Below, one piece after another: positions 6,227-37,899 of a stretch of DNA of 64,000 nt. The stretch comes from Patescibacteria group bacterium. GTDB taxonomy: Bacteria; Patescibacteriota; Minisyncoccia; Phycocordibacterales; UBA9973. The position numbers and the translations under genes were made by a program. A model generated the notes under the pieces. It saw only the letters and a list, made by a program, of their open reading frames with translations. It searched no databases and was not told where the DNA came from. Numbering within the stretch: position 1 is the stretch's first letter; every line of letters begins with the position of its first letter. The stretch spans positions 79,312 through 143,311 of the forward strand of contig JBBTYN010000002.1 in assembly GCA_038061755.1 (NCBI GenBank). The letters run 5' to 3'.

Positions 6227-6646
6227 TCATAGCAAGTCTTTAAAAATAAATCCTTCTTCATATGAATCAATCCCTAATTTTGTAGCCAAAAACAAGGGAG
6301 CGGGTAAATTATCCAAATCATACCAACCCCAGCCATCACATTTGTTCGGTTCCATTATTTCTGGTTCTCCGCTTTTCCAATCTGCAATTACAGCAACCTG
6401 TATAAAATGCTTTGGGGAATAATCTTTTAAATTTGCTAAATATTGAAATTTAATATTTTCTATTTCAATTCCAGCTTCTTCTTTTGTTTCTCTTTTGGCA
6501 CATTCTAAAAAGGATTCCATATACTCAAGATGCCCACCAGGGAAAGCGTATTCCCCCGCACCAAAACTACCATTACGTTTACCTAATAAAATTTTCCCAT
6601 CTTTTAAAATCATAACCCCTATTCCAACGAATGGTCTTTGTTCCAT
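6227..6646 (-). CDS. NUDIX hydrolase
   Basis: Nudix box GGHLEYMESFLECAKRETKEEAGI (GX5EX7REUXEEXGU). Confidence 0.8.
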   Translation of the reverse strand: MEQRPFVGIGVMILKDGKILLGKRNGSFGAGEYAFPGGHLEYMESFLECAKRETKEEAGIEIENIKFQYLANLKDYSPKHFIQVAVIADWKSGEPEIMEPNKCDGWGWYDLDNLPAPLFLATKLGIDSYEEGFIFKDLL

Positions 6647-6653
6647 AAACCAA

Positions 6654-7150
6654 TTATATCAGTTTAGCTAATAATTCCTCCGCCCTTCTTATAATCCGTT
6701 CTCCAATTTCTCCCCAATCAAAATATTGCTTGTAGTCCTTTGGATCTATCAACTTAATTTCTGTAACATGCTCTGCTGGATCTGAACTAAATTCTCCATA
6801 TGGCCTTGCTGTGCAAACATAACGAAGCTGATATACAAAACTATTATCTCTGGTATCAATAACTTTTTGATATCCAACAGGCAAGAATGAAAGGACTTCC
6901 ATATTTGATTCTTCTTGTATTTCTCTTTTTAAAGTTTCTTCGAAACTCTCTCCTTTTTCAATAGTTCCTCCGATAAGTCCCATGTTTTACTATGCCCATT
7001 AAGAACTATCACCATTTTCCCATTACAAAAACACACTGCATACGTTTGAGTGCATTTTGTTTTATCTAGATCATCGAAAGAATTCATATCAGAATATTCA
7101 AAAATATAATCCACCCCACTTTTTCCTTTGTATTTTTCTGTTATGTTCAT
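6654..7150 (-). pseudogene. Second NUDIX hydrolase gene interrupted by a -1 frameshift (two overlapping ORFs, 6929..7150 and 6654..6983)
   Basis: The upstream ORF ends ...VLNGHSKTWDL. The downstream ORF in another frame begins GLIGGTIEKGESFEETLKREIQEESN, which is the Nudix box. Restoring one G in the run 'tggg' near 6984 yields the continuous ...KTWGLIGGTIEKGES... Confidence 0.6.
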
Positions 7151-7158
7151 AAAATTAT

Positions 7159-7719
7159 TTATAAGTTAAATGTTTCTTTAATTTTTTGAGCAACAACTTC
7201 GGGAGATAAATTTGTATTATTTATCCTAATATAATTTTTTTCTTTTATTTCGCCTTCTTTTGAATTTAATCGGTGCTCCAATTCACTTTTTTTAAGATTA
7301 TTCTCAGACCATTCGATATTTCTTTTTGTTGGTTTGTGTTCCAGCCTATGTTCTGTTTTATTCCTCCTTATTCTTTCTTCGGTGTCTGCTTCAAGTTCCA
7401 CATAATATATTTCTGCTCCTTTGTCTTTAAATAAATTTACTAAATTTTCTAAATAATCCCAATCTTTTTTTTCATCAAAATACCATAAATATGTAAAAAC
7501 TAACCCTTCTAAATCACTAGATGCTACCTCTTTAAATATTTCTTCACGAATAAGTTTTACAAGTTTTTTACCTGTTTCAGTGCTATAACTAAAAAATGGA
7601 GAAACTAATTCAATTGGCATATGATTATGAAACAATTTTAAACTAGTTATTTTTTCAAGTTCATGCCCAATGGTCATTTTACCAACAGCTTGTGGTCCAA
7701 ATATAATAATCAATTTCAT
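7159..7719 (-). CDS. P-loop NTPase (AAA_33 / small-kinase-like), function unknown
   Basis: Walker A GPQAVGKMT at the N-terminus; 186 aa with a charged C-terminus. Confidence 0.5.
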   Translation of the reverse strand: MKLIIIFGPQAVGKMTIGHELEKITSLKLFHNHMPIELVSPFFSYSTETGKKLVKLIREEIFKEVASSDLEGLVFTYLWYFDEKKDWDYLENLVNLFKDKGAEIYYVELEADTEERIRRNKTEHRLEHKPTKRNIEWSENNLKKSELEHRLNSKEGEIKEKNYIRINNTNLSPEVVAQKIKETFNL

Positions 7720-7794: not shown

Positions 7795-10161
7795 ATGTTT
7801 TACAAACACAACGATAACTACACAGTCGAGAGCGTCACTTCTGGCCATCCGGACAAAATCTGTGACCAGATATCAGATGCTATTTTAGATGCATATTTAA
7901 CTTTGGACCCAAAGAGTCGTGTCGCCGTGGAGACCTTTGGCGGTCATGGCAAGCTTGTAATTGGTGGAGAAGTCACCTCGACAGGAAAAGTGGACTACAT
8001 AAAAATCGCCCGTGATGTTTATCGCAAAATTGGTTACACAGATGAGCTCGAAATCTCTGCACACATCGTCACTCAATCCCCCGACATCGCTCAGGGAGTA
8101 GATACAGGCGGAGCTGGAGACCAAGGATGCCTCAAAAAAGGTACCCTTGTAAGAACTAAAAGAGGGTTAATCGCAATACAAGAAATTGTAAAGGGAGATT
8201 ATGTTGCTACCCCATACGGTTGGCGTAAAGTACTCAGAGCTATGATGACCGGTAGAAAAAAAATTGTAGAAGTAGTTTCCGCCGACGGAATGGCATTAGA
8301 ATGCACACCAGATCACAGAATATTGTGCTACGACCGCGAAGGAGCCACGTATTGGAAAGAAGCAGCTTCATTAGAAAAAGGTGATTTTATGTGTACGCTT
8401 AAACCGCAGGAAATTGATGCTGATTTTTTTGTGCAGTCACAAATCCCTCGTGAAAAATTTTTTAGCAAATACAACCATAAAATTTTCGGGCCAGAAGAAT
8501 TGATTTTTAATCATGACGTCGCCTACATTGCGGGAGAATTAATAGGAGATGGATATGTTGCGAGTCCTTATTTAATGGATTTAGCGTTTGGTAATAATCG
8601 TGAGCACGCCGTTATGGTACAAGATGTTTGTAATAAATTTATGCCAGAACAATGGAGGCTAATCGATAATGGTAGTAATGTATGTCTAAAAATTGATTCC
8701 GTTTTGGTTAGAAAACATTTCGAAAATTTTGGTATTACATATGCGAAAGCGCCCGAAAAAGAAACCCCACGAGCTGTCTTCGTTTCCCCGCCAGAAGTTA
8801 TAAAAGGTTATTTAAGAGGACTTTTTGATAGCGATGGAACTATTATTATAAATACGGGGAGAAAAAAAGAAAACATCAGGATTCGTCTTGGTTCTTCATC
8901 TCTTCGACTATTGCGCGAAACCCAATTATTGTTGCATGATTTTGGAATAAAATCTACAATCATTCTTAACACAGCCAAGGGAATGCCAGTTGGAAAAAAG
9001 GGGAAGTTTGGGAAAATATATTATTCACAGCACCAACACTACGTGCTTTCCTTGGTAGGTTTTGAAAGTTATCAAAAATTCTGCAAAGAAATCAGTTTTA
9101 GTGATAAGAAAAAACAGGAACGTGCCAAGATGTATTTAGAAAAATGTAAAACACAGCCAAAAAATTCACGTGGCGTATACTTAATACCTCACCCCAAAAA
9201 AGACGAACTTATAGAAGAATCAAGACTTGGCTGTGAATTCCCCTTTGCAGTTAGCGTGTTTAAAAACATAGTAGACAGAAAAGAAATTACAGAAGTTTAC
9301 GATCTTGAAATAGAAGGAATACATATGTTTTCAGCAAATGGAATTATAGTTCATAATTCCATGTACGGATTCGCTACGGATGAGACACCTGAATTTTTAC
9401 CCAAGGGCGTAGTCCTCGCACATAAACTCGCAAAACGTTTAGAAGAATTAAGGAACAATGGAGAAATCAAATGGTTACGCCCCGATGGCAAAACACAAGT
9501 CACTTATACGAATGGTGAACTGAATACCGTATTAGTAAGTACGCAACATACACCAGAAGTCACACCAGAAGAAATTAAAAAAGAAATTACTGAAAAAATT
9601 ATTCTGCCTTTACTCACCGACAAGGAAAAAAGTTTGGCCTGTCCCGTTAGAGATCGCGAGGGCTCGCAGCGTGTTCCCAGCTCTAATGGGATAAAGATTC
9701 TGGTAAACCCCACGGGAAAATTTATCCAAGGTGGTTTCGAAGCAGATACAGGATTAACTGGCCGCAAAATAATGGTAGATACTTATGGTGGACTCATCCC
9801 CCACGGCGGTGGATGTTTCTCAGGAAAAGATGCCACAAAGGTGGACCGCTCAGGCGCATATATGGCTCGCTACGTGGCGAAAAGCCTCGTTGCAGGTGGT
9901 TATGGTAAAGAAGTGCTCGTATCTGTAGCCTATGCTATCGGTATGGCTGAACCACTGATGATAGAAGCGATTAACGAAAAAGGGAAAGATTTATCAAAAA
10001 TCGTCCGCCAAAATTTTGATTTTAAACCGCTTGCAATAATAAAAAAACTGAAACTTCAAAAGCCAATCTACGAGCAAACTGCCACCTATGGTCATTTCGG
10101 CAAAAAAAATCTGCCGTGGGAAAAAATTGAAAAGATAAAAACTACTGCTTTTTTTGGCTAG
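7795..10161 (+). CDS. metK: S-adenosylmethionine synthetase interrupted by an intein
   Basis: Exteins have GHPDKICDQISDAILDA, GGAGDQG | SMYGFATDETPE, NPTGKFIQGG, GLTGRKIMVDTYGG and GAYMARYVAKS. A 410-aa insertion separates GDQG from MYGF. Confidence 0.9.
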   Translation: MFYKHNDNYTVESVTSGHPDKICDQISDAILDAYLTLDPKSRVAVETFGGHGKLVIGGEVTSTGKVDYIKIARDVYRKIGYTDELEISAHIVTQSPDIAQGVDTGGAGDQGCLKKGTLVRTKRGLIAIQEIVKGDYVATPYGWRKVLRAMMTGRKKIVEVVSADGMALECTPDHRILCYDREGATYWKEAASLEKGDFMCTLKPQEIDADFFVQSQIPREKFFSKYNHKIFGPEELIFNHDVAYIAGELIGDGYVASPYLMDLAFGNNREHAVMVQDVCNKFMPEQWRLIDNGSNVCLKIDSVLVRKHFENFGITYAKAPEKETPRAVFVSPPEVIKGYLRGLFDSDGTIIINTGRKKENIRIRLGSSSLRLLRETQLLLHDFGIKSTIILNTAKGMPVGKKGKFGKIYYSQHQHYVLSLVGFESYQKFCKEISFSDKKKQERAKMYLEKCKTQPKNSRGVYLIPHPKKDELIEESRLGCEFPFAVSVFKNIVDRKEITEVYDLEIEGIHMFSANGIIVHNSMYGFATDETPEFLPKGVVLAHKLAKRLEELRNNGEIKWLRPDGKTQVTYTNGELNTVLVSTQHTPEVTPEEIKKEITEKIILPLLTDKEKSLACPVRDREGSQRVPSSNGIKILVNPTGKFIQGGFEADTGLTGRKIMVDTYGGLIPHGGGCFSGKDATKVDRSGAYMARYVAKSLVAGGYGKEVLVSVAYAIGMAEPLMIEAINEKGKDLSKIVRQNFDFKPLAIIKKLKLQKPIYEQTATYGHFGKKNLPWEKIEKIKTTAFFG
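8128..9357 (+). mobile_element. Intein with LAGLIDADG homing-endonuclease domain, inserted in metK after the GAGDQG motif
   Basis: It begins with Cys (CLKKGTLV...) and ends ...GIIVHN, followed by Ser. The two LAGLIDADG motifs are YIAGELIGDGYV and LRGLFDSDGTII. Length is 1230 nt (410 aa), and the flanking extein sequence is contiguous MetK. Confidence 0.8.
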
Positions 10162-28903: not shown

Positions 28904-31162
28904 ATGACTGGTAAAAATAAAATAATAAAATTCATCTCTGTTATTCTAATTATTTCAATAATAATGCCTGTTGTTTTATTTTCTAGTCCCCAAAAAGCGC
29001 GAGCAACTGTACCGACTGCAGAGGTAGGCGCATTCGGATGGATTTCTAAATATTTTCAAGAATCAACCGCAGCATCTTCTTGGACAACAGCTTTAACAAC
29101 TGTTAAAGATTGGGCGGCCAAGATAGCTAAAGAGGTAATGAAAGCAATCGCAAAAAAAATCTTAGCGAAAATGACTCAAGCTACCATAAATTGGATTAAT
29201 TCTGATTTTCATGGACAGCCGCTTTTTTTAACGCATCCTGACTCTTTCTTTAGAGACATAGCAAAATCAGGACTAAAAGATATGGTAAATATATTCGGCT
29301 ATAACAACCTCCTATATCCTTTTGGTAGGCAATTTGCTTTAAATGCAATAAATAGTTACAAAAGCAAACTCGCTCAAAATGCCGAATATAGTTTAGGTAA
29401 AGTCTTGGATGGAGCGCAACTTAGGCTGTATCTAGGTAATTTTAATTATGGTGGATGGAATGGATTTTTAAATAATACGCAATACCCTCAAAATAATTAT
29501 CTAGGATTTAATATGATAGCAACCGAAGAGCTTGCCAGAAGAATTAAGGGTACAGTTCAATCTGCTGCTGATAAAGTACAATCCACTCTCCAGCAAGGAA
29601 TGGGTTTCCTCTCTCCAGAAAAATGTACAACTAACCCTAAATACAATAATGGAACAAATGAATTCCAAAAACCAAGTCTTGATACGGCTAAATGGGAGGC
29701 TGATTACAAAAACAGCCATCCTATTCCTTCTGGTCCTTCTGGTTCCAGTATGGATGCTATGGACAAATGGGATACAGATTTTAAAGCTGCTGAAGAAAAG
29801 GCTATAGATGATTTCTATACTAATAATACTTGCCCAAAAAAAGCAGACGGAACAAGTGGTTTTGAAAAAACTACTCCAGGCTTTGTGGCAGCTACCCAAG
29901 TAACAAATGCGCTTAATATGCCAGGCTTGACGACCGCGCTTGATGGAGCATTAGGCAATAGCTTAGCTGCTATTTTTGACGCCCTTTTAAATCACTTTTT
30001 AGACAAAGGCTTAAATGCGATGGCAAATAAAATTAACCCCGCACCCTCAATAGACAACTGGAGTTATAGTGGCAATACATTAACTGGAGGCACTGCTACA
30101 ACAACTGCTACAACAGTTGAAACTTTAAATATCCCACAAAACGTTTCAGTTACTGTCGGACAAACAACCAGCACCACAATCTCAGGCGGTTCAGGGACTT
30201 ATAGTATTCAACCTCAATCAAACGCGTCGCTGACAATAGCGATTGCCACGGTTGATATTTCTGGCTCTCTTCCAAAACTCAAAGTTACTGGTGTCGCGAA
30301 GGGTACAACCTCAGTCATAGCGCAAGATTCGTCTAGCCCAATACAAACTATAACGGTTACCATCACCGTAAGTAATATGGGGGATATAGTGGTTACTCCA
30401 GCAAATATTTCAACCGATGTTGGCGCGCAAGTCACCGCCACTATGTCTGGTGGCACAGAACCTTATTCTATTCAGACGAGCCCCAATGAAACAAATGCGA
30501 TAGCAACGTTTTCTGGCAATAACTTAATCGTATTTGGTATGGCAAATGGTACTACTTTTGTTGATATAAAAGATTCTTCAGCGCCAGCAAAAACTGTTCG
30601 CGTCAAGATATTAGTTGGTCCTAATATTTTAATCGTCGATCCATCAAGTGTTTCAGTTTATACTGGTGAAGTAGTTAGTGTGCCAATCTCAAATGGCACA
30701 GCACCGTATTTCGTCACAAATCAACAAAATATTAATGTGGCAACTGGTGAAATTTTATCCGCTACTCCTAATATCCTCACTGTTACCGGTCGCGCAGAAG
30801 GGACAAGCGTGGTGACAATCACAGATTCATCAACTCCAGCAAAAACAACTATCGTCAAAATTACGGTTTCTCTTAACTTAACCATTACACCGTCAAATGT
30901 TACACTTTATCTTAATAGTTGTTTTCTTGGTAGGTGTAGTAATACAGCCAACCTTACCATCTCAAATGGCACAGCGCCGTATTTCGTCACAAATCAACAA
31001 GACCCCACAGTGGCAACTGCTCAGGTTCTGTCAGCTTCTTATGGTGATTCAATTCTCACTGTTACTGGCCTCAAGGCAGGAACAAGCGTAGTTACTGTAG
31101 AAGATTCATCAGCTGAAGCAATCAAGCATGCCACCGTAAATATTACAGTAGTTAATAATTAG
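28904..31162 (+). CDS. Large cell-surface protein with four or five tandem Ig-like (Big-like) repeats
   Basis: N-terminal TM/signal segment. The C-terminal half has repeating roughly 90-aa units (ISGGSGTYSIQP..., MSGGTEPYSIQT..., ISNGTAPYFVTNQQ... twice) ending ...TVTG.AEGTSVVT..DSS.PAKT..V.I.V. Confidence 0.6.
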   Translation: MTGKNKIIKFISVILIISIIMPVVLFSSPQKARATVPTAEVGAFGWISKYFQESTAASSWTTALTTVKDWAAKIAKEVMKAIAKKILAKMTQATINWINSDFHGQPLFLTHPDSFFRDIAKSGLKDMVNIFGYNNLLYPFGRQFALNAINSYKSKLAQNAEYSLGKVLDGAQLRLYLGNFNYGGWNGFLNNTQYPQNNYLGFNMIATEELARRIKGTVQSAADKVQSTLQQGMGFLSPEKCTTNPKYNNGTNEFQKPSLDTAKWEADYKNSHPIPSGPSGSSMDAMDKWDTDFKAAEEKAIDDFYTNNTCPKKADGTSGFEKTTPGFVAATQVTNALNMPGLTTALDGALGNSLAAIFDALLNHFLDKGLNAMANKINPAPSIDNWSYSGNTLTGGTATTTATTVETLNIPQNVSVTVGQTTSTTISGGSGTYSIQPQSNASLTIAIATVDISGSLPKLKVTGVAKGTTSVIAQDSSSPIQTITVTITVSNMGDIVVTPANISTDVGAQVTATMSGGTEPYSIQTSPNETNAIATFSGNNLIVFGMANGTTFVDIKDSSAPAKTVRVKILVGPNILIVDPSSVSVYTGEVVSVPISNGTAPYFVTNQQNINVATGEILSATPNILTVTGRAEGTSVVTITDSSTPAKTTIVKITVSLNLTITPSNVTLYLNSCFLGRCSNTANLTISNGTAPYFVTNQQDPTVATAQVLSASYGDSILTVTGLKAGTSVVTVEDSSAEAIKHATVNITVVNN

Positions 31163-31198
31163 GTCATTCCGTAAGAAATATGCCATTTGAAATAATAA

Positions 31199-33238
31199 AT
31201 GTCAAAAGATTTAACAAAAAAAAAATCTGCTATTGAAAAAAATAAGTTCATTCTAGCGAGGACTGTCCTAGCTAGTGTGTTTGTTTTGTTCGTCTTGATA
31301 GGAATTTTTAGTCCGCTGACGAAAGTAAATGCTGCTGCTGACCCAAAACAATTAAATTTTCAAACCGCAATAGATGAACAAATATGTCTTTCTTGGGATG
31401 GTGGTCTTTCTCCTGGTGCATGTCTAGTGCAATTTTCATATTACCTGCTATATGTAATTCCGGCTTTTTTGCTGACAATGGCTGCTATATTTTTCAATAT
31501 CCTAATATCTATTACTTTAGGCAGTACGCTTCTTAAGTCAACCTTTATTTCTGACGCATGGGCAGTAGTTCGCGACCTTTCTAATATGTTCTTCATACTT
31601 ATTTTACTTTATATAGCCATTAAAGTTATTTTGGGAATGAGCGGATCTGAAGTTAAAAAAATGATAGGAAATGTCGTGATAATGGCGCTTCTTATAAATT
31701 TTTCTATGTTTTTTACTCAAGTGATTATTGATTCTTCAAATATATTGGCTTTAATTTTTTACAATAAGTTAAGCCCAACGTCTCAATACACCACAATAAC
31801 TGGAGAAAAAGATATTGCGGGTGGCTTAGTTCAAGCCTTTAACCCCACAGCCTCTTTGAGTCCAAATTTTTTTATAGCAGCTAAGGCAACACAAATACCA
31901 GACCCAGACGATCCTACCAAAACCATAACAAAAAAAGAAGACAAAGTGCCACTCGGAATGATGGTAGGAATTATTCTTGTTACTGGATTAGTTTTACTTT
32001 TTGCCACATATGCATTATTTGTGTCAGGACTATACTTCGTGGGCAGATTAATTGAGCTTTTTGTCTTAATTGTTTTCTCTCCTTTTGCTTTTATGTCTTG
32101 GACAATACCAAAATTCGCAGGTATAGACTACATAGGATGGGACGCTTGGCTTAAACGCCTTATCACGGCATCATTTATGGCGCCGATTTTTATGTTCTTT
32201 TTATATTTTATATTTATGGTAGTGAAAGCAAATATATTCAGTGATTCTGTATTAACAGGTCAAGGTATAATAATAATGTTATTACGTATGGCAATCCCAG
32301 CATTGGTAATTTTGGTTTTGCTTCTTCAAGCAGTCAAATTTGCCAAGAAAGGCTCCGGAATGTTTGGGGAAATGGTAATGAAAGGCGCAAAGATGGTAGG
32401 CGGGGTGGCCTTGGGGGCAACAGTAGGTGGGTTAGCAGTCGCTGGACGAGCAAGTGTTGGTAGAGCAGGGGCAGCTATGGCAAATTCAGAATGGACAAGG
32501 AAACGAGAAGCTGCAGGAAAATTTGGTTCTGGGGTATTTAGAGATGTAACAAAAAAAATGGGTACAGGTAGCTTTGATATTAGGGGAGCAAAAATTGGTG
32601 GTCAAACCTTAGCTTCTGCTACGGGTATGAAAGTTGGTGAAGCGCAAAAAGGTGGTTTTGCAGAGAAAAGAGAAAAGGATGTAAAGAAGAGAGTGGAAAG
32701 AGCTAAAGAAATTGAAGTTGGAGAGGATGAACATTTGAAACAAGCATTAAATACAACAGAAGCAAATCTACAGGGACTTCTAAGTGCAAATGCAAAAGAA
32801 ATTGAGACACTTGATAAAACAATTGAAAAGAAAAGACAAGAAGCAATTGACGCAGAAAGAGACTTTAAGGCTGGAACAATCACACAAACAGATTTACAAA
32901 CAAAAACAAATGAACTGAAGAATGCAAAAGATAATAAAAAGGATTTTGTAAAGGGAAATGAATATATGACCACAGATAGTGCTGGTATAGCCTCAATCAA
33001 AAAAGGAACTGGGGTAAATATTGATGCCTTAGAAAAACTTAAAAAAGATCAAGTTCAAGATATAAAAACAGAAAATGTAATAAGAAGACAGGCTTATGCT
33101 ACTAAATTAGAAGGTGGTGGAAATAGAGCTTTAAATTTTGTATTCAGTGGAGGTCAGTATGCCTTAAAGCGTGGTGCTAATGAGGCTGCACATAAAATAA
33201 GAACTGAAGTTAAATTAGACAGTGGAACAAAGGCATAA
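31199..33238 (+). CDS. Polytopic membrane protein, VirB6/TrbL-like candidate of a T4SS-like cluster, with a C-terminal charged coiled-coil tail
   Basis: At least 8 predicted TM helices over about 400 aa, then a K/E-rich tail. It lies in a cluster with VirB4 and PrgI-like genes; the assignment is by architecture and context only. Confidence 0.45.
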   Translation: MSKDLTKKKSAIEKNKFILARTVLASVFVLFVLIGIFSPLTKVNAAADPKQLNFQTAIDEQICLSWDGGLSPGACLVQFSYYLLYVIPAFLLTMAAIFFNILISITLGSTLLKSTFISDAWAVVRDLSNMFFILILLYIAIKVILGMSGSEVKKMIGNVVIMALLINFSMFFTQVIIDSSNILALIFYNKLSPTSQYTTITGEKDIAGGLVQAFNPTASLSPNFFIAAKATQIPDPDDPTKTITKKEDKVPLGMMVGIILVTGLVLLFATYALFVSGLYFVGRLIELFVLIVFSPFAFMSWTIPKFAGIDYIGWDAWLKRLITASFMAPIFMFFLYFIFMVVKANIFSDSVLTGQGIIIMLLRMAIPALVILVLLLQAVKFAKKGSGMFGEMVMKGAKMVGGVALGATVGGLAVAGRASVGRAGAAMANSEWTRKREAAGKFGSGVFRDVTKKMGTGSFDIRGAKIGGQTLASATGMKVGEAQKGGFAEKREKDVKKRVERAKEIEVGEDEHLKQALNTTEANLQGLLSANAKEIETLDKTIEKKRQEAIDAERDFKAGTITQTDLQTKTNELKNAKDNKKDFVKGNEYMTTDSAGIASIKKGTGVNIDALEKLKKDQVQDIKTENVIRRQAYATKLEGGGNRALNFVFSGGQYALKRGANEAAHKIRTEVKLDSGTKA

Positions 33239-33242
33239 AAAT

Positions 33243-33716
33243 ATGACGGACAAATTAAAACAAACAATTAAAGACGAAGTGGAAAAATTACCAAAAGAAA
33301 ATCAAGAAGTGATTAATAATTTTGGTTGGGAAAAAATTACGGAAGAAGTTGGAAAGAAGTTTTTACTTTCGGATAATGAAATAAATGATTTTCAAGTAGA
33401 AACTTTAATTATTTTAGTTGGATTAGAAGATATTGATTTTTACGCGAGTAATATAGAAAACAATGTCGGCACCAGCAAGGATGAAGCGAAAAAAATTACT
33501 GATGAAGTAATTCAAAAAATATTTACCCCAATTAATGACATCCTAGTAGAAAACATTAAAAAAAGCGACAAGCTAAAAAATACAAACGTAGAACAAAATC
33601 TTAATTTTATTCTTTCCGGTGGAGATTATACGGCCTTTTTGGATGTCCCACGCCTTATTGATGAGGGAGCAGGAGAAAATGAAACAGTTTTACCGGTCTT
33701 TTTTATTAAAAAATAA
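33243..33716 (+). CDS. Hypothetical acidic protein (paralog of the next gene)
   Basis: Shares with 33731..34306 an N-terminal LPxExQxxIN motif and a similar layout. The start is taken at the internal Met (MTDKLKQ). Confidence 0.45.
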   Translation: MTDKLKQTIKDEVEKLPKENQEVINNFGWEKITEEVGKKFLLSDNEINDFQVETLIILVGLEDIDFYASNIENNVGTSKDEAKKITDEVIQKIFTPINDILVENIKKSDKLKNTNVEQNLNFILSGGDYTAFLDVPRLIDEGAGENETVLPVFFIKK

Positions 33717-33730
33717 TATATAATAACAAC

Positions 33731-34306
33731 ATGGAAGACACAACAGATTTATTACAAATAAAAATTGAGAAGGCAAAAATGCAATTGCCAGAAGAAACCC
33801 AAAACGCAATCAATGCTGTTGATTATAAAGCGGTTATTTTAGAAATGAGAAAAAAAAAAGGATATAGTTTTGAACAATTAGGAGACCTAGAAACTGAAAC
33901 AGAATTATTGCTTTGCGGGCTTCTTAGTCCAGAAAATTATCCAAAAGAATTAGGAAACAGGATGCATCTTTCAGGTAATGAAGTTAATGAATTAGTAAAA
34001 GAAATGAATAATCGTGTTTTTGCAAAAATAAAAGAAAACTTGGTAAAAAGGACAGAAGAAAAAAAAGAAGAAAATGATGATATGCAAATATTACATTCTG
34101 CTGGAATTGAGATTATTCCTGAAAAAAAAGAATTAACAACACCCACGCCTCCAATCTTGGCACAAAAATTATCCGGTTATGTTAAAAATGAAGTAGTGGA
34201 AACAGAACATTCTCTAGAAAATATCACAAAAATAAGTATGCCAACTCCACCAATTACTAAAACAAGCAAAATAACTATAGATCCATATAGAGAAATTCCT
34301 GAATAA
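33731..34306 (+). CDS. Hypothetical acidic protein (paralog of the previous gene)
   Basis: MEDTTDLLQIKIEKAKMQLPEETQNAINAV... No recognisable family. Confidence 0.45.
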   Translation: MEDTTDLLQIKIEKAKMQLPEETQNAINAVDYKAVILEMRKKKGYSFEQLGDLETETELLLCGLLSPENYPKELGNRMHLSGNEVNELVKEMNNRVFAKIKENLVKRTEEKKEENDDMQILHSAGIEIIPEKKELTTPTPPILAQKLSGYVKNEVVETEHSLENITKISMPTPPITKTSKITIDPYREIPE

Positions 34307-34312
34307 CAAAGC

Positions 34313-34391
34313 AATTACGAATTATCAATTACGAATTACGAATTAAAAAAACAAAAAAATTAAAAATCAGTAATTACGAATTACGAATTTG
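34313..34391 (+). repeat. Array of AATTACG heptamer repeats (direct orientation) upstream of the four-helix-bundle gene
   Basis: The array reads aattacgaattatcaattacgaattacgaattaaaaaa...agtaattacgaattacgaattt. Confidence 0.7.
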
Positions 34392-34751
34392 AAAGAAAAT
34401 ATTATACAACAAAAAAGTTATGTATTTGCAATAAAAATTATTGAATTATATAAATACTTAATTGGAACAAAAAAAGAATTTATTTTATCAAAACAACTTT
34501 TGAGAAGTGGAACGTCAATAGGAGCAAACATAGAAGAAGCATTAGGTGGTCAATCAAGAAAAGATTTTATCTCAAAATTATCTATAGCCTATAAAGAAGC
34601 TCGAGAAACAAAATACTGGCTCTCTTTATTAAGGGAAGCAAAATATATGACTCAAGAAGAATTGAATCCTGTTTTTGATAATTGTGAGGAAATATTAAAA
34701 ATAATAGGTAAAATTCAAAAAACATCAAAAGAAAATGGGGTTAATTCGTAA
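34389..34751 (+). CDS. Four-helix-bundle protein (TIGR02436 / 23S rRNA IVS protein / DGR Avd-like family)
   Basis: 120 aa with ...SKQLLRSGTSIGANIEEALGGQSRKDFISKLSIAYKEARETKYWLSLL..., matching the sQl.RsatSI.aNIaEG...s.kdF...l.iA..e..Et..wl.l motif. TTG start. The gene lies inside heptamer-repeat arms. Confidence 0.75.
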   Translation: MKENIIQQKSYVFAIKIIELYKYLIGTKKEFILSKQLLRSGTSIGANIEEALGGQSRKDFISKLSIAYKEARETKYWLSLLREAKYMTQEELNPVFDNCEEILKIIGKIQKTSKENGVNS

Positions 34752-34790
34752 TTGATTATATAATGTTCTATAATGTAGTAGTGGGTTGCT

Positions 34791-34826
34791 AATTCGTAAT
34801 TCGTAATTCGTAATTTATAATTGATT
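34791..34826 (+). repeat. Inverted-orientation heptamer array (AATTCGT x3) plus conserved leader aatttataattgattcatATG
   Basis: Reverse complement of the upstream AATTACG array. Together the arrays form the arms of a hairpin whose loop is the 4HB gene. A second partial copy (aattcgtaattgat) overlaps the 4HB stop codon at 34743-34756. Confidence 0.7.
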
Positions 34827-34829
34827 CAT

Positions 34830-35273
34830 ATGCAGTTTAAAGTTCCACAATTTTTAGACATAGAAGACAAAATATTCGGCCCTTTCACTTTTAGGGAATT
34901 TGTTTATTTGGCTGGTGGAGCAGGCTTGTGTTTTATTCTTTATAAATTGCTAGGTCTTATTTTAGGAGCCATACCAATTTTAATTGTGGCAGGATTTTCG
35001 CTCGCTCTTACTTTTTATAAACCAAACAATAAACCATTCCTTAACATAATTGAATCTAGTTTTAAATACTTTACCAAAAACAAACTTTATATTTGGAAAA
35101 AAGGCAAAAGCCACGCTTCAATGGACGGTGTGCGACATGATTTCACTAAATCAGATATAAACAAAGTTCAAATAATACATTCTAGTAATTTACAATTAAA
35201 TGGAAGCAAGTTACGGGACTTAGCTTGGAGTTTGGATGTATTAGATTTAAGTAAACAACAGGGAAAAAATTAA
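34830..35273 (+). CDS. PrgI/VirB3-like small membrane protein
   Basis: MQFKVPQFLDIEDKIFGPFTFREFVYLAGGAGLCFILYKLL..., a two-TM hairpin architecture typical of the PrgI family, immediately upstream of the VirB4 genes. The ATG start is at 34830. Confidence 0.5.
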   Translation: MQFKVPQFLDIEDKIFGPFTFREFVYLAGGAGLCFILYKLLGLILGAIPILIVAGFSLALTFYKPNNKPFLNIIESSFKYFTKNKLYIWKKGKSHASMDGVRHDFTKSDINKVQIIHSSNLQLNGSKLRDLAWSLDVLDLSKQQGKN

Positions 35274-35282
35274 GAATTAGCA

Positions 35283-35378
35283 ATTACGAATTACGAATGA
35301 AAAATACAGATTACAAATTAAAAGATTATGAGTTGCGAATTAAATTCGTAATTCGCAATTCGTAATTTAAAATTGATT
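35283..35378 (+). repeat. Intergenic hairpin made of heptamer repeats (direct AATTACG arm, 43-nt loop, inverted AATTCGT arm) plus the conserved leader before the next ATG
   Basis: aattacgaattacgaatg...(loop)...aattcgtaattcgcaattcgtaatttaaaattgattcaaATG. This is the same architecture as the arms flanking the 4HB gene, but with an empty loop. Confidence 0.7.
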
Positions 35379-35381
35379 CAA

Positions 35382-36020
35382 ATGGCCTTAAAAGCAAAAG
35401 CAACTCAAGAATTTGTGCCAATCAAGGAAGTTCGCGATGGAATAGTCGTGCTAAAAAACGACGAATTACGGGCTATCGTGCTGGCTAATTCTGTAAATCT
35501 ATCTCTAAAATCTTCTGATGAACAACAAGCAACAATAATGCAATTTCAAAATTTTCTTAATACCTTAGATTTTTCTGTGCAAATATCAATCCAATCAAGA
35601 AGGCTAAACATTAGGCCTTATCTTTTGCTTTTGGAAGACAGAATAAAGGTTCAAAATGAACCCCTTTTAAAATTACAAACTAGAGAATATATAGAATTTA
35701 TTAAAAATTTTACTGATTCAGTGGCAATAATGACAAAAAACTTTTTTGTAGTAGTTCCATACACCCATACTACTTTAAAATCAGACTCTGGAATACTGGA
35801 TAAAATATTTTCAAGAAAAAATAAAGAGGAGATAAAAGTTGCAAAACAAATAGATTTTGAAGAAAAAAGGTCTCAATTGGAAGAAAGAGTAGCTGTTATT
35901 CAGCAAGGACTCTCCCGTTGTGGTATAAATTCAGCTCAACTTGGTACTGAAGAAGTAGTGGAAGTATTTTATAAAGTTTTCAACCCGGGGGAAATAGAAG
36001 GAAAAATTAAATTAGAATAA
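35382..36020 (+). CDS. VirB4/TrbE N-terminal-domain protein (split from the ATPase)
   Basis: EFVPIKEVRDGIVVLKNDELRAIVLANSVNLSLKSSDEQQATIMQFQNFLNTLDFSVQI resembles the VirB4 N-domain. The ORF ends 28 nt before the ATPase ORF. Confidence 0.5.
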   Translation: MALKAKATQEFVPIKEVRDGIVVLKNDELRAIVLANSVNLSLKSSDEQQATIMQFQNFLNTLDFSVQISIQSRRLNIRPYLLLLEDRIKVQNEPLLKLQTREYIEFIKNFTDSVAIMTKNFFVVVPYTHTTLKSDSGILDKIFSRKNKEEIKVAKQIDFEEKRSQLEERVAVIQQGLSRCGINSAQLGTEEVVEVFYKVFNPGEIEGKIKLE

Positions 36021-36048
36021 TCTACGAGCTTAACGCCACAAAAATTAT

Positions 36049-37899
36049 ATGGATTTTTTTAAAAAATTATTTGGAAAAGAAAAAAAGACTGAAAGTGAAG
36101 AAATACGAACTTCTGTTTTGGCTGTCTTGCCAGAAAAAATTTACGAATCTGCAAATTTGGAACTTCAAGATATCATTGCCCCATCAGCCTTAAAAATCGA
36201 CCCGAAATCTATAAACCTAGGTAGCAAAATAGCCCGCACTTTTTTTATAATATCTTATCCAAGGTTTTTAACAGATAATTGGTTTTCTCCAATAATTAAT
36301 TTAGATAAAATTTTTGATATTTCAATATTCGTTCACCCCATAGACACTTCTCTTGTTCTGCGACAATTTCAAAAAAAAGTTGCCGAAGTCCAAAGTCAAA
36401 TAAGTGTTCGAGAATCAAAAGGAATGGTGCGTGACCCAATGTTGGACACTGCCTATGAAGACTTAGAAGGGCTTCGTAATAATTTAATTCAAGCACAAGA
36501 AAAAATGTTTGATGTCGGTATTTATATCACAATTTATGCAGATAATGAATTGGAATTATATAAAATAGAAAATGAAATAAAATCAATGCTTGAATCAAAG
36601 CTAATATATATCAAACCGGCTCTTTTTCAGCAAGAAGAAGGTTTTAAAAGTGTCATTCCAATAGAAACAGACCTATTAAACATCCACCAAAAATTAAATT
36701 CTGAGCCCCTTTCTAGCGTTTTTCCATTTATTTCTTCTGATCTTACTTCAGACAAAGGAATACTTTATGGCATTAATAGACATAACTCGTCCCTCGTTAT
36801 CTTCGATAGATTCAGCTTGGAAAATTATAACTCAGTAACATTTGCTAAATCAGGTTCTGGAAAATCTTATGCGACAAAATTAGAAATTCTAAGATCCTTA
36901 ATGTTTGATACTGATGTTATCGTAATAGATCCAGAAAGAGAATATGAATTCTTGGCTGAAGCTGTCGGTGGACGATATTTTAACATTTCGCTCTCTTCCG
37001 ATCATCACTTGAATCCTTTTGACTTGCCGATACCTCGCGAAGACGAAACAGCTGAAGATGTTTTACGTTCAAATATCATTAATTTAGTAGGGCTTTTTAG
37101 ACTAATGCTAGGTGGGCTCACTCCAGAAGAAGATTCGATGGTAGACCGAGCTATTTCAGAAACTTATGCAATGAAAGATATAACGCCAGAATCAGATTTT
37201 TCAAATATTGAACCACCTCTTCTTTCAGATTTTGAAATGGTGCTCGGAGGAATGGAAGGAAGTGATTCAGTCATTGCTAGATTAGCAAAATACACCAGAG
37301 GTTCTTGGGCAACTTTTTTAAACAGACCGTCTAACGTGGATATTAATAAAAAATTCGTGGTATTTTCTGTTCGTGATATGGAAGACGAATTAAAACCAGT
37401 AGCAATGTATATTATTATGCATTATATTTGGAATGCAATAAGAAAGAATCTTAAAAAAAGACTTCTAGTGGTGGATGAAGCTTGGTGGATGATGAAATCA
37501 GAAGATACAGCCTCGTTCTTATACTCTATTGCAAAAAGAGGCAGAAAATATTACTTAGGTCTTTCCACTATCACTCAAGATGCGGCAGACTTTATGAAAT
37601 CTCCCTATGGAGTGCCAATAATTACCAATTCCTCCATTCAACTTCTTTTAAAACAATCACCTACCACAATTGATATTTTGCAAAAAACTTTTAATCTTAC
37701 TGATGAAGAAAAGTATTTACTTTTGGAGTCTGGATTAGGAGAGGGTATATTTTTCGCCGGATTAAAACATGTTGCTATAAAAATAGTTTCTTCTTATACG
37801 GAAGACCAAATCATTACCTCTGATCCTTCACAACTATTATTAAACAAAAAGGCCAAAGAGGAACAAGAAGCAAAAGCGACAGCGACAGCAGGGAAGTAG
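36049..37899 (+). CDS. VirB4/TraC/TrbE-family type IV secretion ATPase (ATPase domain)
   Basis: Walker A AKSGSGKSYATK, Walker B LLVVDEAWWMM and GRKYYLGLSTITQ. The size and motifs match the VirB4 C-terminal two thirds. Confidence 0.8.
   Translation: MDFFKKLFGKEKKTESEEIRTSVLAVLPEKIYESANLELQDIIAPSALKIDPKSINLGSKIARTFFIISYPRFLTDNWFSPIINLDKIFDISIFVHPIDTSLVLRQFQKKVAEVQSQISVRESKGMVRDPMLDTAYEDLEGLRNNLIQAQEKMFDVGIYITIYADNELELYKIENEIKSMLESKLIYIKPALFQQEEGFKSVIPIETDLLNIHQKLNSEPLSSVFPFISSDLTSDKGILYGINRHNSSLVIFDRFSLENYNSVTFAKSGSGKSYATKLEILRSLMFDTDVIVIDPEREYEFLAEAVGGRYFNISLSSDHHLNPFDLPIPREDETAEDVLRSNIINLVGLFRLMLGGLTPEEDSMVDRAISETYAMKDITPESDFSNIEPPLLSDFEMVLGGMEGSDSVIARLAKYTRGSWATFLNRPSNVDINKKFVVFSVRDMEDELKPVAMYIIMHYIWNAIRKNLKKRLLVVDEAWWMMKSEDTASFLYSIAKRGRKYYLGLSTITQDAADFMKSPYGVPIITNSSIQLLLKQSPTTIDILQKTFNLTDEEKYLLLESGLGEGIFFAGLKHVAIKIVSSYTEDQIITSDPSQLLLNKKAKEEQEAKATATAGK

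Follow-up and report, generated by a model that had tools for sequence, protein, structure and literature searches.

What interrupts the gene for S-adenosylmethionine (SAM) synthetase in a member of the Patescibacteria, and could that gene still give rise to a working enzyme? The locus lies in a stretch of 64,000 nucleotides (nt) of contig JBBTYN010000002.1, hereafter called the window, in which metK forms a single open reading frame (ORF) of 788 amino acids (aa) plus stop (7795-10161, + strand), with an N-extein, an intein and a C-extein all in frame. An original prediction, made from the sequence alone, had placed in this gene a full-size intein with two LAGLIDADG blocks. The analysis presented here leads to the same view: the insertion is very probably a class 1 intein that is intact and contains a LAGLIDADG homing endonuclease with two motifs, residing in the single metK of a bacterium of the candidate phyla radiation (CPR). 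No second metK and no further intein were found in the 64,000 nt of the window.

Anatomy of the insertion and contiguity of the exteins

The ORF divides into a 111-aa N-extein whose last residues are GAGDQG (7795-8127, + strand), a 410-aa intein running from Cys1 to His409-Asn410 (8128-9357, + strand), and a 267-aa C-extein plus stop (9358-10161, + strand) that carries the central and C-terminal MetK domains. Translation across both junctions reads VDTGGAGDQG before the intein, CLKKGTLVRT...ANGIIVHN as its two ends, and SMYGFATDETPE after it. The codon of Cys1 (TGC, 8128-8130) lies directly 3' of GGAGDQG, the codons of His409-Asn410 occupy 9352-9357, and the next codon, TCC (9358-9360), specifies Ser. 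Translation thus reproduced exactly what had been predicted, namely an in-frame insertion of 410 aa right after the GAGDQG of MetK that starts with Cys, ends with His-Asn and is followed by Ser.

Both exteins are recognisable as MetK. Pfam searches with the ORF assigned residues 9-88 to S-AdoMet_synt_N (PF00438) and placed S-AdoMet_synt_M (PF02772) and S-AdoMet_synt_C (PF02773) 3' of the intein, the PF02772 match beginning at profile position 9, at the first post-intein residue. In NCBIfam, the metK equivalog TIGR01034 scored 406 bits against a cut-off of 309, which identifies the host protein as a MetK of the bacterial-eukaryotic type. The intein-deleted MetK of 378 aa could be aligned along its entire length with MetK structures in the PDB (E = 5e-102 to 1e-98), the N-extein up to GAGDQG and the C-extein contiguously with it. 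The junction itself was free of gaps, GAGDQG-SMYGFATDETPE in the window facing GAGDQG-LMFGYACDETPE in a PDB MetK (SMYGF against LMFGY; E = 5e-102).

Alignment with intein-less MetK also confirmed the insertion point and the contiguity of the exteins. The best 120 database matches to the spliced MetK all lack an intein, measure 353-400 aa and are 78-86% identical to it, and the named ones among them belong to Paceibacterota, Nomurabacteria, Minisyncoccia or Patescibacteria. The residue after GAGDQG is Ile in all 11 aligned intein-less MetK of Patescibacteria, and Ser in the window. At the DNA level, empty sites (L004 and L006) read GGnGCnGGnGAyCAAGGn-ATC or GGnGCnGGnGAyCAAGGn-ATA followed by ATGTAyGG (the hyphen marks the insertion point), with TCC standing at the +1 codon in the window. 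One of them, L006 (P0009), is a syntenic empty site, where a ComM-like Mg-chelatase gene precedes, at some distance, metK, a conserved hypothetical gene and PNPase, as in the window. By these alignments, the intein splits the active-site loop of MetK two residues past the conserved Asp of GAGDQG, which we take to be residue 119 of E. coli MetK when Met1 is counted, corresponding to the catalytic Asp118 of the literature.

Separately from the intein, the C-extein in the window contains a 54-nt in-frame insert (9637-9690, + strand) that encodes ACPVRDREGSQRVPSSNG and occurs there in one copy. The insert has a GC content of 63% in a genome of 33% GC and carries terminal inverted repeats (CCCGTTAGAG...CTCTAATGGG). 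It is missing from most CPR MetK (354 aa), is found at the same place in P0009, P0010 and P0011, and in P0010 is accompanied by a second similar peptide at the C-terminus. In the comparison of the window with L006, 57 of 59 nt of the insert are identical, whereas the flanking coding DNA is more diverged (about 70-85%). An Rfam search with the insert gave no match. The insert resembles a small, palindromic mobile element that integrates in frame, comparable to the Rickettsia palindromic elements.

Splicing residues, endonuclease motifs and predicted fold

Comparison with hidden Markov models of inteins gave matches above cut-off for Intein_splicing (PF14890; E = 4.8e-16, 59 bits against 35.8) and LAGLIDADG_3 (PF14528; E = 3.5e-14) in Pfam, and for intein_Cterm (TIGR01443; 27.5 bits against 15.6) in NCBIfam, which excludes a chance resemblance to the intein family. 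The positions expected to carry out splicing are as follows. Cys1, the N-terminal splicing nucleophile of block A, is kept in all family members with a complete N-terminus; block B (ECTPDHRIL, 8299-8325) contains the invariant Thr60 and His63 of the TxxH motif; block F (VYDLEIEGIHMFSANG, 9295-9342) includes V390, Y391, D392, L393, E394, F401, S402, N404 and G405, all invariant; and block G, formed by IIVHN together with Ser+1 (9343-9360), marks the C-terminal splice junction recognised by TIGR01443. Wherever the family alignment covers them, Cys1, Thr60/His63 (TPDH), VYDLE..H.F.ANG, VHN and the +1 Ser or Cys are conserved. Closer alignment accordingly revealed no loss of splicing residues, all canonical ones being present.

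The homing-endonuclease domain extends approximately over intein residues 121-345 (8488-9162), as indicated by PF14528, by the alpha/beta pattern of the structural model, by structural matches to I-DmoI and I-Tsp061I and by the substitution rates given below. The two LAGLIDADG blocks that had been predicted correspond to YIAGELIGDGYV (8524-8559) and LRGLFDSDGTII (8812-8847), so that the intein is of full size, with a Hint and an endonuclease domain. Both motif helices end in acidic residues (GELIGD141G and GLFDSD236G), Asp141 being encoded at 8548-8550 and Asp236, which is invariant, at 8833-8835. In P0130, a distant member of the family, Asn replaces Asp in motif 1.

An AlphaFold2 model of the intein, obtained from a nine-sequence alignment, had a predicted local distance difference test score (pLDDT) of 81.5 and a predicted template modelling score (pTM) of 0.84. 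In this model the N- and C-terminal parts together are predicted to adopt the Hint fold, matching 7qss, 1dq3 and 1vde, and the predicted secondary structure of the endonuclease domain follows a pseudo-dimeric alpha-beta-beta-alpha-beta-beta-alpha pattern. The top Foldseek matches in the PDB were full-length endonuclease inteins, among them TliVMA (7qss; E = 8e-22, TM = 0.70), PI-PfuI (1dq3), PhoVMA and PI-SceI. The next ones were free-standing LAGLIDADG enzymes such as I-DmoI, which matched the middle domain; for I-DmoI and I-Tsp061I the TM relative to the target was about 0.7. In a PDB search by sequence, the gp41-1, TliVMA, RecA and DnaB inteins matched at the intein termini.

The best structural matches, the inteins of V-ATPase A subunits (TliVMA, 7qss; PhoVMA, 7qst; PI-SceI, 1vde), have the same Hint and two-motif LAGLIDADG domains, Cys1 and terminal His-Asn as the metK intein, and likewise interrupt an ATP-using enzyme where it binds the nucleotide. 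However, they reside in a different host protein and are only 13-19% identical in sequence. PI-SceI has in addition an extra DNA-recognition region, which is not evident in the metK intein. PI-PfuI, from the ribonucleotide reductase of Pyrococcus furiosus, is a full-length archaeal intein-endonuclease that ranked third in the fold search (E = 6e-17), but it is larger (454 aa), 14% identical and located in another host gene.

All features of a class 1 intein that can be tested in silico are present in the metK element, and other assignments fit it poorly. Class 3 inteins are devoid of a nucleophile at position 1 and rely on a Trp-Cys-Thr triad in blocks B, F and G, whereas here Cys1 is present, block G reads VHN without Thr, and the corresponding position of block F is Asp. 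metK in the window is one continuous ORF, which rules out a naturally split intein. Bacterial intein-like (BIL) domains are Hint domains that occur in variable regions of proteins lacking conservation, and they mostly have no +1 nucleophile or endonuclease; the present element lies in the most conserved motif of MetK, is followed by Ser+1 and includes an endonuclease domain. It is therefore a canonical class 1 intein with a homing endonuclease, most likely competent for splicing.

Under the mechanism that we infer, the 788-aa precursor would be made as one chain and would have no SAM synthetase activity, since its active-site loop is split. The Hint domain would then excise the intein through an N-S acyl shift at Cys1 and trans-esterification to Ser+1, followed by cyclisation of Asn410 aided by His409 and by an O-N shift, with Thr60/His63 and Asp392 taking part. 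The expected products are a ligated MetK of 378 aa bearing an Ile-to-Ser scar and a free intein of 410 aa. The latter could cut intein-less metK at GGnGCnGGnGAyCArGGn-ATnATGTAyGG (the hyphen again marking the insertion point), and repair would copy the intein into the cut allele (homing).

Relatives, selection and movement of the intein

About 25 metagenomic relatives occupy the GAGDQG site (site a), two or three of them in CPR bacteria and the rest in bacterial-type MetK of DPANN archaea. A query with the intein only against 5.8 billion word-indexed proteins returned eight matches (50-58% identity), all of them MetK and, where named, from metagenome-assembled genomes (MAGs) of Aenigmarchaeota or Micrarchaeota. 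A HMMER scan of 1.84 billion cluster representatives retrieved two strong clusters, P0129 (55% identity) and P0130 (44%), below which scores fell sharply to E = 1e-38 and to inteins mostly in other hosts, the few that were checked including ribonucleotide reductase. Among these weaker matches P0132, P0168 and P0212, all MetK or MetK-like, contain at the same insertion site an intein 26-32% identical to that of the window. A metagenome scan with the family alignment yielded around 20 loci (49-75% identity), in all of which an intein running from Cys to His-Asn is preceded by GAGDQG and followed by Ser or Cys. When GTDB genomes were scanned with the exact peptides of the window, a single locus was found, in an Aenigmatarchaeota genome, and a scan of viral contigs with the family alignment gave distant inteins only (at most 28% identity), none in a GAGDQG context; the one phage-like MetK intein, P0168, emerged from the scan of cluster representatives.

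The DPANN site-a inteins from Aenigmarchaeota and Micrarchaeota MAGs (for example P0001-P0006 and L001-L003) have the same insertion point as the window intein (GAGDQG, then Ser or Cys and Met), are similar in length (about 405-412 aa), agree with it in the block residues, likewise contain the endonuclease, and are 50-63% identical to it. Their hosts differ, with exteins that are 46-54% identical to those of the window and form a clade apart from CPR MetK. In some DPANN-type metK the phosphate-binding motif is interrupted, between GGGAF and SGKD (site b), by another LAGLIDADG intein, which is about 445 aa long and looks unrelated to the site-a intein. Three loci (L017, where site b starts from nt 1494, L018 and L024) combine site-a and site-b inteins in one gene, with ORFs of about 1240 aa; a site-b intein is also found in P0137/P0283, in P0283 without one at site a.

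The DPANN MAGs (P0001-P0008, L003) encode MetK of the bacterial/eukaryotic type (PF00438, PF02772, PF02773) and not the archaeal-type methionine adenosyltransferase, consistent with gene sharing between DPANN and bacteria. Directly upstream of DPANN metK lies a divergently transcribed gene for a protein with an Xre-type helix-turn-helix (HTH) and CBS domains (L001 4913-5437, L002 1-128 and L010 1545-2426, all on the - strand). CBS domains frequently bind adenosyl ligands, and the HTH-CBS protein may be a SAM-responsive regulator of metK.

Several gene calls in these genomes (L001 6001-7863, L002 657-2615, P0001-P0003 and P0006) start at a Met located 17-26 residues inside the intein and omit the N-extein from the annotation. 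The four NCBI proteins among the DPANN relatives that begin at intein residues 17-26 might suggest a split intein, but they are gene-call artefacts. In the DNA upstream of L002 the N-extein is in frame and continuous; in L001 there is a frameshift near N-extein codon 15.

The MetK-like P0168 (L007 8001-10196) reads GWGDQG before the intein, which runs from Cys to His-Asn, is followed by CF and is 31% identical to that of the window. Its 192-kb contig (ENA) also encodes RusA, a phage head-completion protein, Thy1, the NAD-salvage enzymes NAPRTase and NAD synthase, and TnpB. The contig is probably that of a large (jumbo) phage, which makes such phages possible vectors of the intein.

The closest relative is L008, assigned as a second Paceibacteria-like host, in which the intein is 75% and the C-extein 81% identical to those of the window, and the adjoining ComM is 93% identical. 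For this pair, the ratio of nonsynonymous to synonymous substitution rates (dN/dS) comes to about 0.08 both over the whole intein and over the endonuclease domain, and to about 0.09 over the N-extein, as rough values given a saturated dS of 1.1-1.9. The window-L008 pair is the only one for which dN/dS is usable, dS being saturated against the inteins of DPANN and L011. These ratios indicate that the intein is under purifying selection.

Relationships were examined through neighbour-joining (NJ) trees of inteins and exteins with bootstrap, which are distance-based and leave any direction of transfer tentative. In the extein tree, the MetK of the window is closest to the intein-less P0012 (C-extein 90% identical) and P0038, and not to L008. 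The inteins of the window and L008, in contrast, are sisters with 100% bootstrap. L011, whose intein is 59% and extein 66% identical to those of the window, groups with the CPR exteins, and the exteins of all hosts other than the window, L008 and L011 form a separate clade with DPANN sequences.

Three observations weigh against an intact and active element. Of the five AlphaFold models, a single one was confident (mean pLDDT of 81.5 against 48-62 in the others); the NCBIfam profile intein_Nterm (TIGR01445) was marginal, reaching 23.2 bits, slightly below its cut-off of 24.5; and the best 120 MetK matches include no intein-less allele of the same species (more than 90% full-length extein identity). 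The second of these could point to a degenerate insertion that no longer splices, in which case metK would be a pseudogene or a permanently interrupted enzyme. We consider this highly improbable: the catalytic splicing residues are complete and conserved across the family, the 2.4-kb ORF is uninterrupted, the exteins are strongly conserved, with the C-extein as close to that of P0012 as noted above, and the intein shows purifying selection.

The third observation implies that the intein may be fixed, leaving its endonuclease without a current target and possibly inactive despite intact motifs. The element would then still splice but be immobile and vertically inherited, at a late stage of the homing cycle. 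The presence of the intein in the syntenic L008, at 75% identity, fits vertical inheritance, and the Asn for Asp in motif 1 of P0130 demonstrates that endonuclease decay occurs in the MetK intein family. In the window, however, both acidic residues of the LAGLIDADG motifs are intact, and dN/dS in the endonuclease domain is not above that of the splicing domain. Moreover, the grouping of the window extein with the intein-less P0012 and P0038, set against the sister relationship of the window and L008 inteins, needs either repeated loss or homing. On balance, immobility appears less likely than not, yet it is plausible and deserves more weight than any of the other alternatives, and an intein with an intact endonuclease remains our preferred reading.

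Several comparisons bear on where such an intein came from. In 84% and 79% of NJ bootstraps, the CPR inteins fall together with the inteins of two loci with DPANN-type exteins, L009 and L010. Across CPR-DPANN pairs, mean identity is 56% for the intein against 51% for the C-extein, the intein being higher in 97% of pairs, whereas within CPR or within DPANN intein identity is equal to or lower than C-extein identity. Nonsynonymous divergence between the window and L009 is 0.30 for the intein against 0.44 for the C-extein. Over the central 30 bp of the insertion site, CPR and DPANN alleles are identical at 18 of 20 non-wobble positions, and L017, the DPANN-type metK with two inteins, was recovered from the aquifer series ('Hain') that also yielded the window contigs. 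In every host examined the GC content of the intein is 6-17 points below that of the extein, as is frequent for mobile inserts relative to their surroundings; that of the window intein, 36.6%, is near the genome average. The nesting of CPR inteins among DPANN-hosted ones and the higher identity of inteins than exteins across the two groups suggest a cross-domain transfer after the divergence of metK. We therefore put forward, at somewhat less than even confidence, that the CPR copies (window, L008 and L011) derive from DPANN through homing into a shared bacterial-type metK in a common groundwater habitat, possibly with large phages as vectors. The direction of transfer would probably be from DPANN to CPR, and the size of the cross-group effect is modest.

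As the nearest relatives of the intein are mostly in archaeal bins, a CPR metK might have been joined to a foreign, intein-bearing fragment during assembly. This has a vanishingly small probability. The identical 788-aa protein occurs on 13 contigs of up to 220 kb. These derive from several samples within a single groundwater series, were assembled independently with different assemblers and always show the same neighbours, which excludes an assembly artefact or chimera. In addition, both junctions are in frame, and L008 provides a second CPR contig with the same arrangement.

metK as an intein host, and its neighbourhood

The original prediction had noted that an intein in metK is less commonly described, which is a fair statement: full-text literature searches, with InBase outside their scope, found no paper on an intein in MetK, SAM synthetase or methionine adenosyltransferase. 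Nevertheless, the approximately 25 relatives in public metagenomes exist, if unannotated as such. The literature on inteins of CPR bacteria yielded nothing beyond passing mentions. The kind of intein is thus not new, and metK as a host gene appears to be undescribed. Inteins are biased towards the conserved ATP-binding motifs of ATPases such as DnaB, MCM, RFC and RecA, according to the large survey by Novikova et al. (2016; PMC4760082), whose main text does not mention MetK. Like these, the metK intein interrupts an ATP-binding protein at the substrate-binding motif that is most conserved; MetK, however, has a fold of its own and is a metabolic enzyme, not a P-loop ATPase. SAM synthetase, a central metabolic enzyme, joins the intein hosts with two sites, GAGDQG and GGGAFSGKD, the motifs in which it is most conserved. 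This fits the preference of inteins for conserved ATP- or substrate-binding motifs and widens it to a protein outside replication.

The same bias, with the 'panic button' hypothesis discussed in that article (PMC4760082), could be taken to favour a regulatory role, in which the intein would act as a post-translational switch whose conditional splicing, for example in response to redox state through Cys1, Cys59, Cys67 and Cys89, gates SAM synthesis under stress. The location of the insertion in the active site of an ATP-consuming enzyme agrees with this possibility, as do the invariance of Cys59, Cys67 and Cys89 in the close family and the persistence of the intein under purifying selection. 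However, these arguments are purely circumstantial, the three internal cysteines are not conserved in the distant MetK inteins P0132, P0168 and P0212, and a selfish element better explains why the intein occurs patchily while thousands of CPR MetK genes have none. A switch is in our view quite improbable, and we retain the reading as a homing element.

The family is small (about 25 members among billions of sequences) and common to CPR and DPANN, and as such offers a concrete, testable case of intein exchange between two groups of ultra-small organisms that share aquifers. The specificity of the predicted endonuclease would be new among LAGLIDADG enzymes, and the intein, with its Gly-1/Ser+1 junction, would count as a new splicing module, although neither alters the understanding of inteins. 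There is also a consequence for annotation, as records say plain 'methionine adenosyltransferase' and several of them put the start codon inside the intein. The exact protein of the window is named 'methionine adenosyltransferase domain-containing protein' in GenBank, from a Patescibacteria MAG.

The window, with a GC content of 33%, is bacterial in content, encoding RNase Y, PNPase, a class A penicillin-binding protein, UvrD and a CCA-adding enzyme. Ahead of metK, two adjacent NUDIX ORFs of 139 and 109 aa lie on the - strand (6227-7150), the latter overlapped by a 73-aa ORF, and a 186-aa ORF without Pfam match (7159-7719) also stands between the upstream genes and metK. The content of this interval differs in L008 and L006, indicating that the neighbourhood immediately upstream of metK is variable. 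Further downstream, a run of large ORFs on the + strand (28904-37899) has few or no Pfam matches; it includes a protein with a pilus-formation N-terminal region (28904-31159) and a TraG/VirB4-like P-loop ATPase (36049-37896), and may constitute a type IV secretion, pilus or conjugative module.

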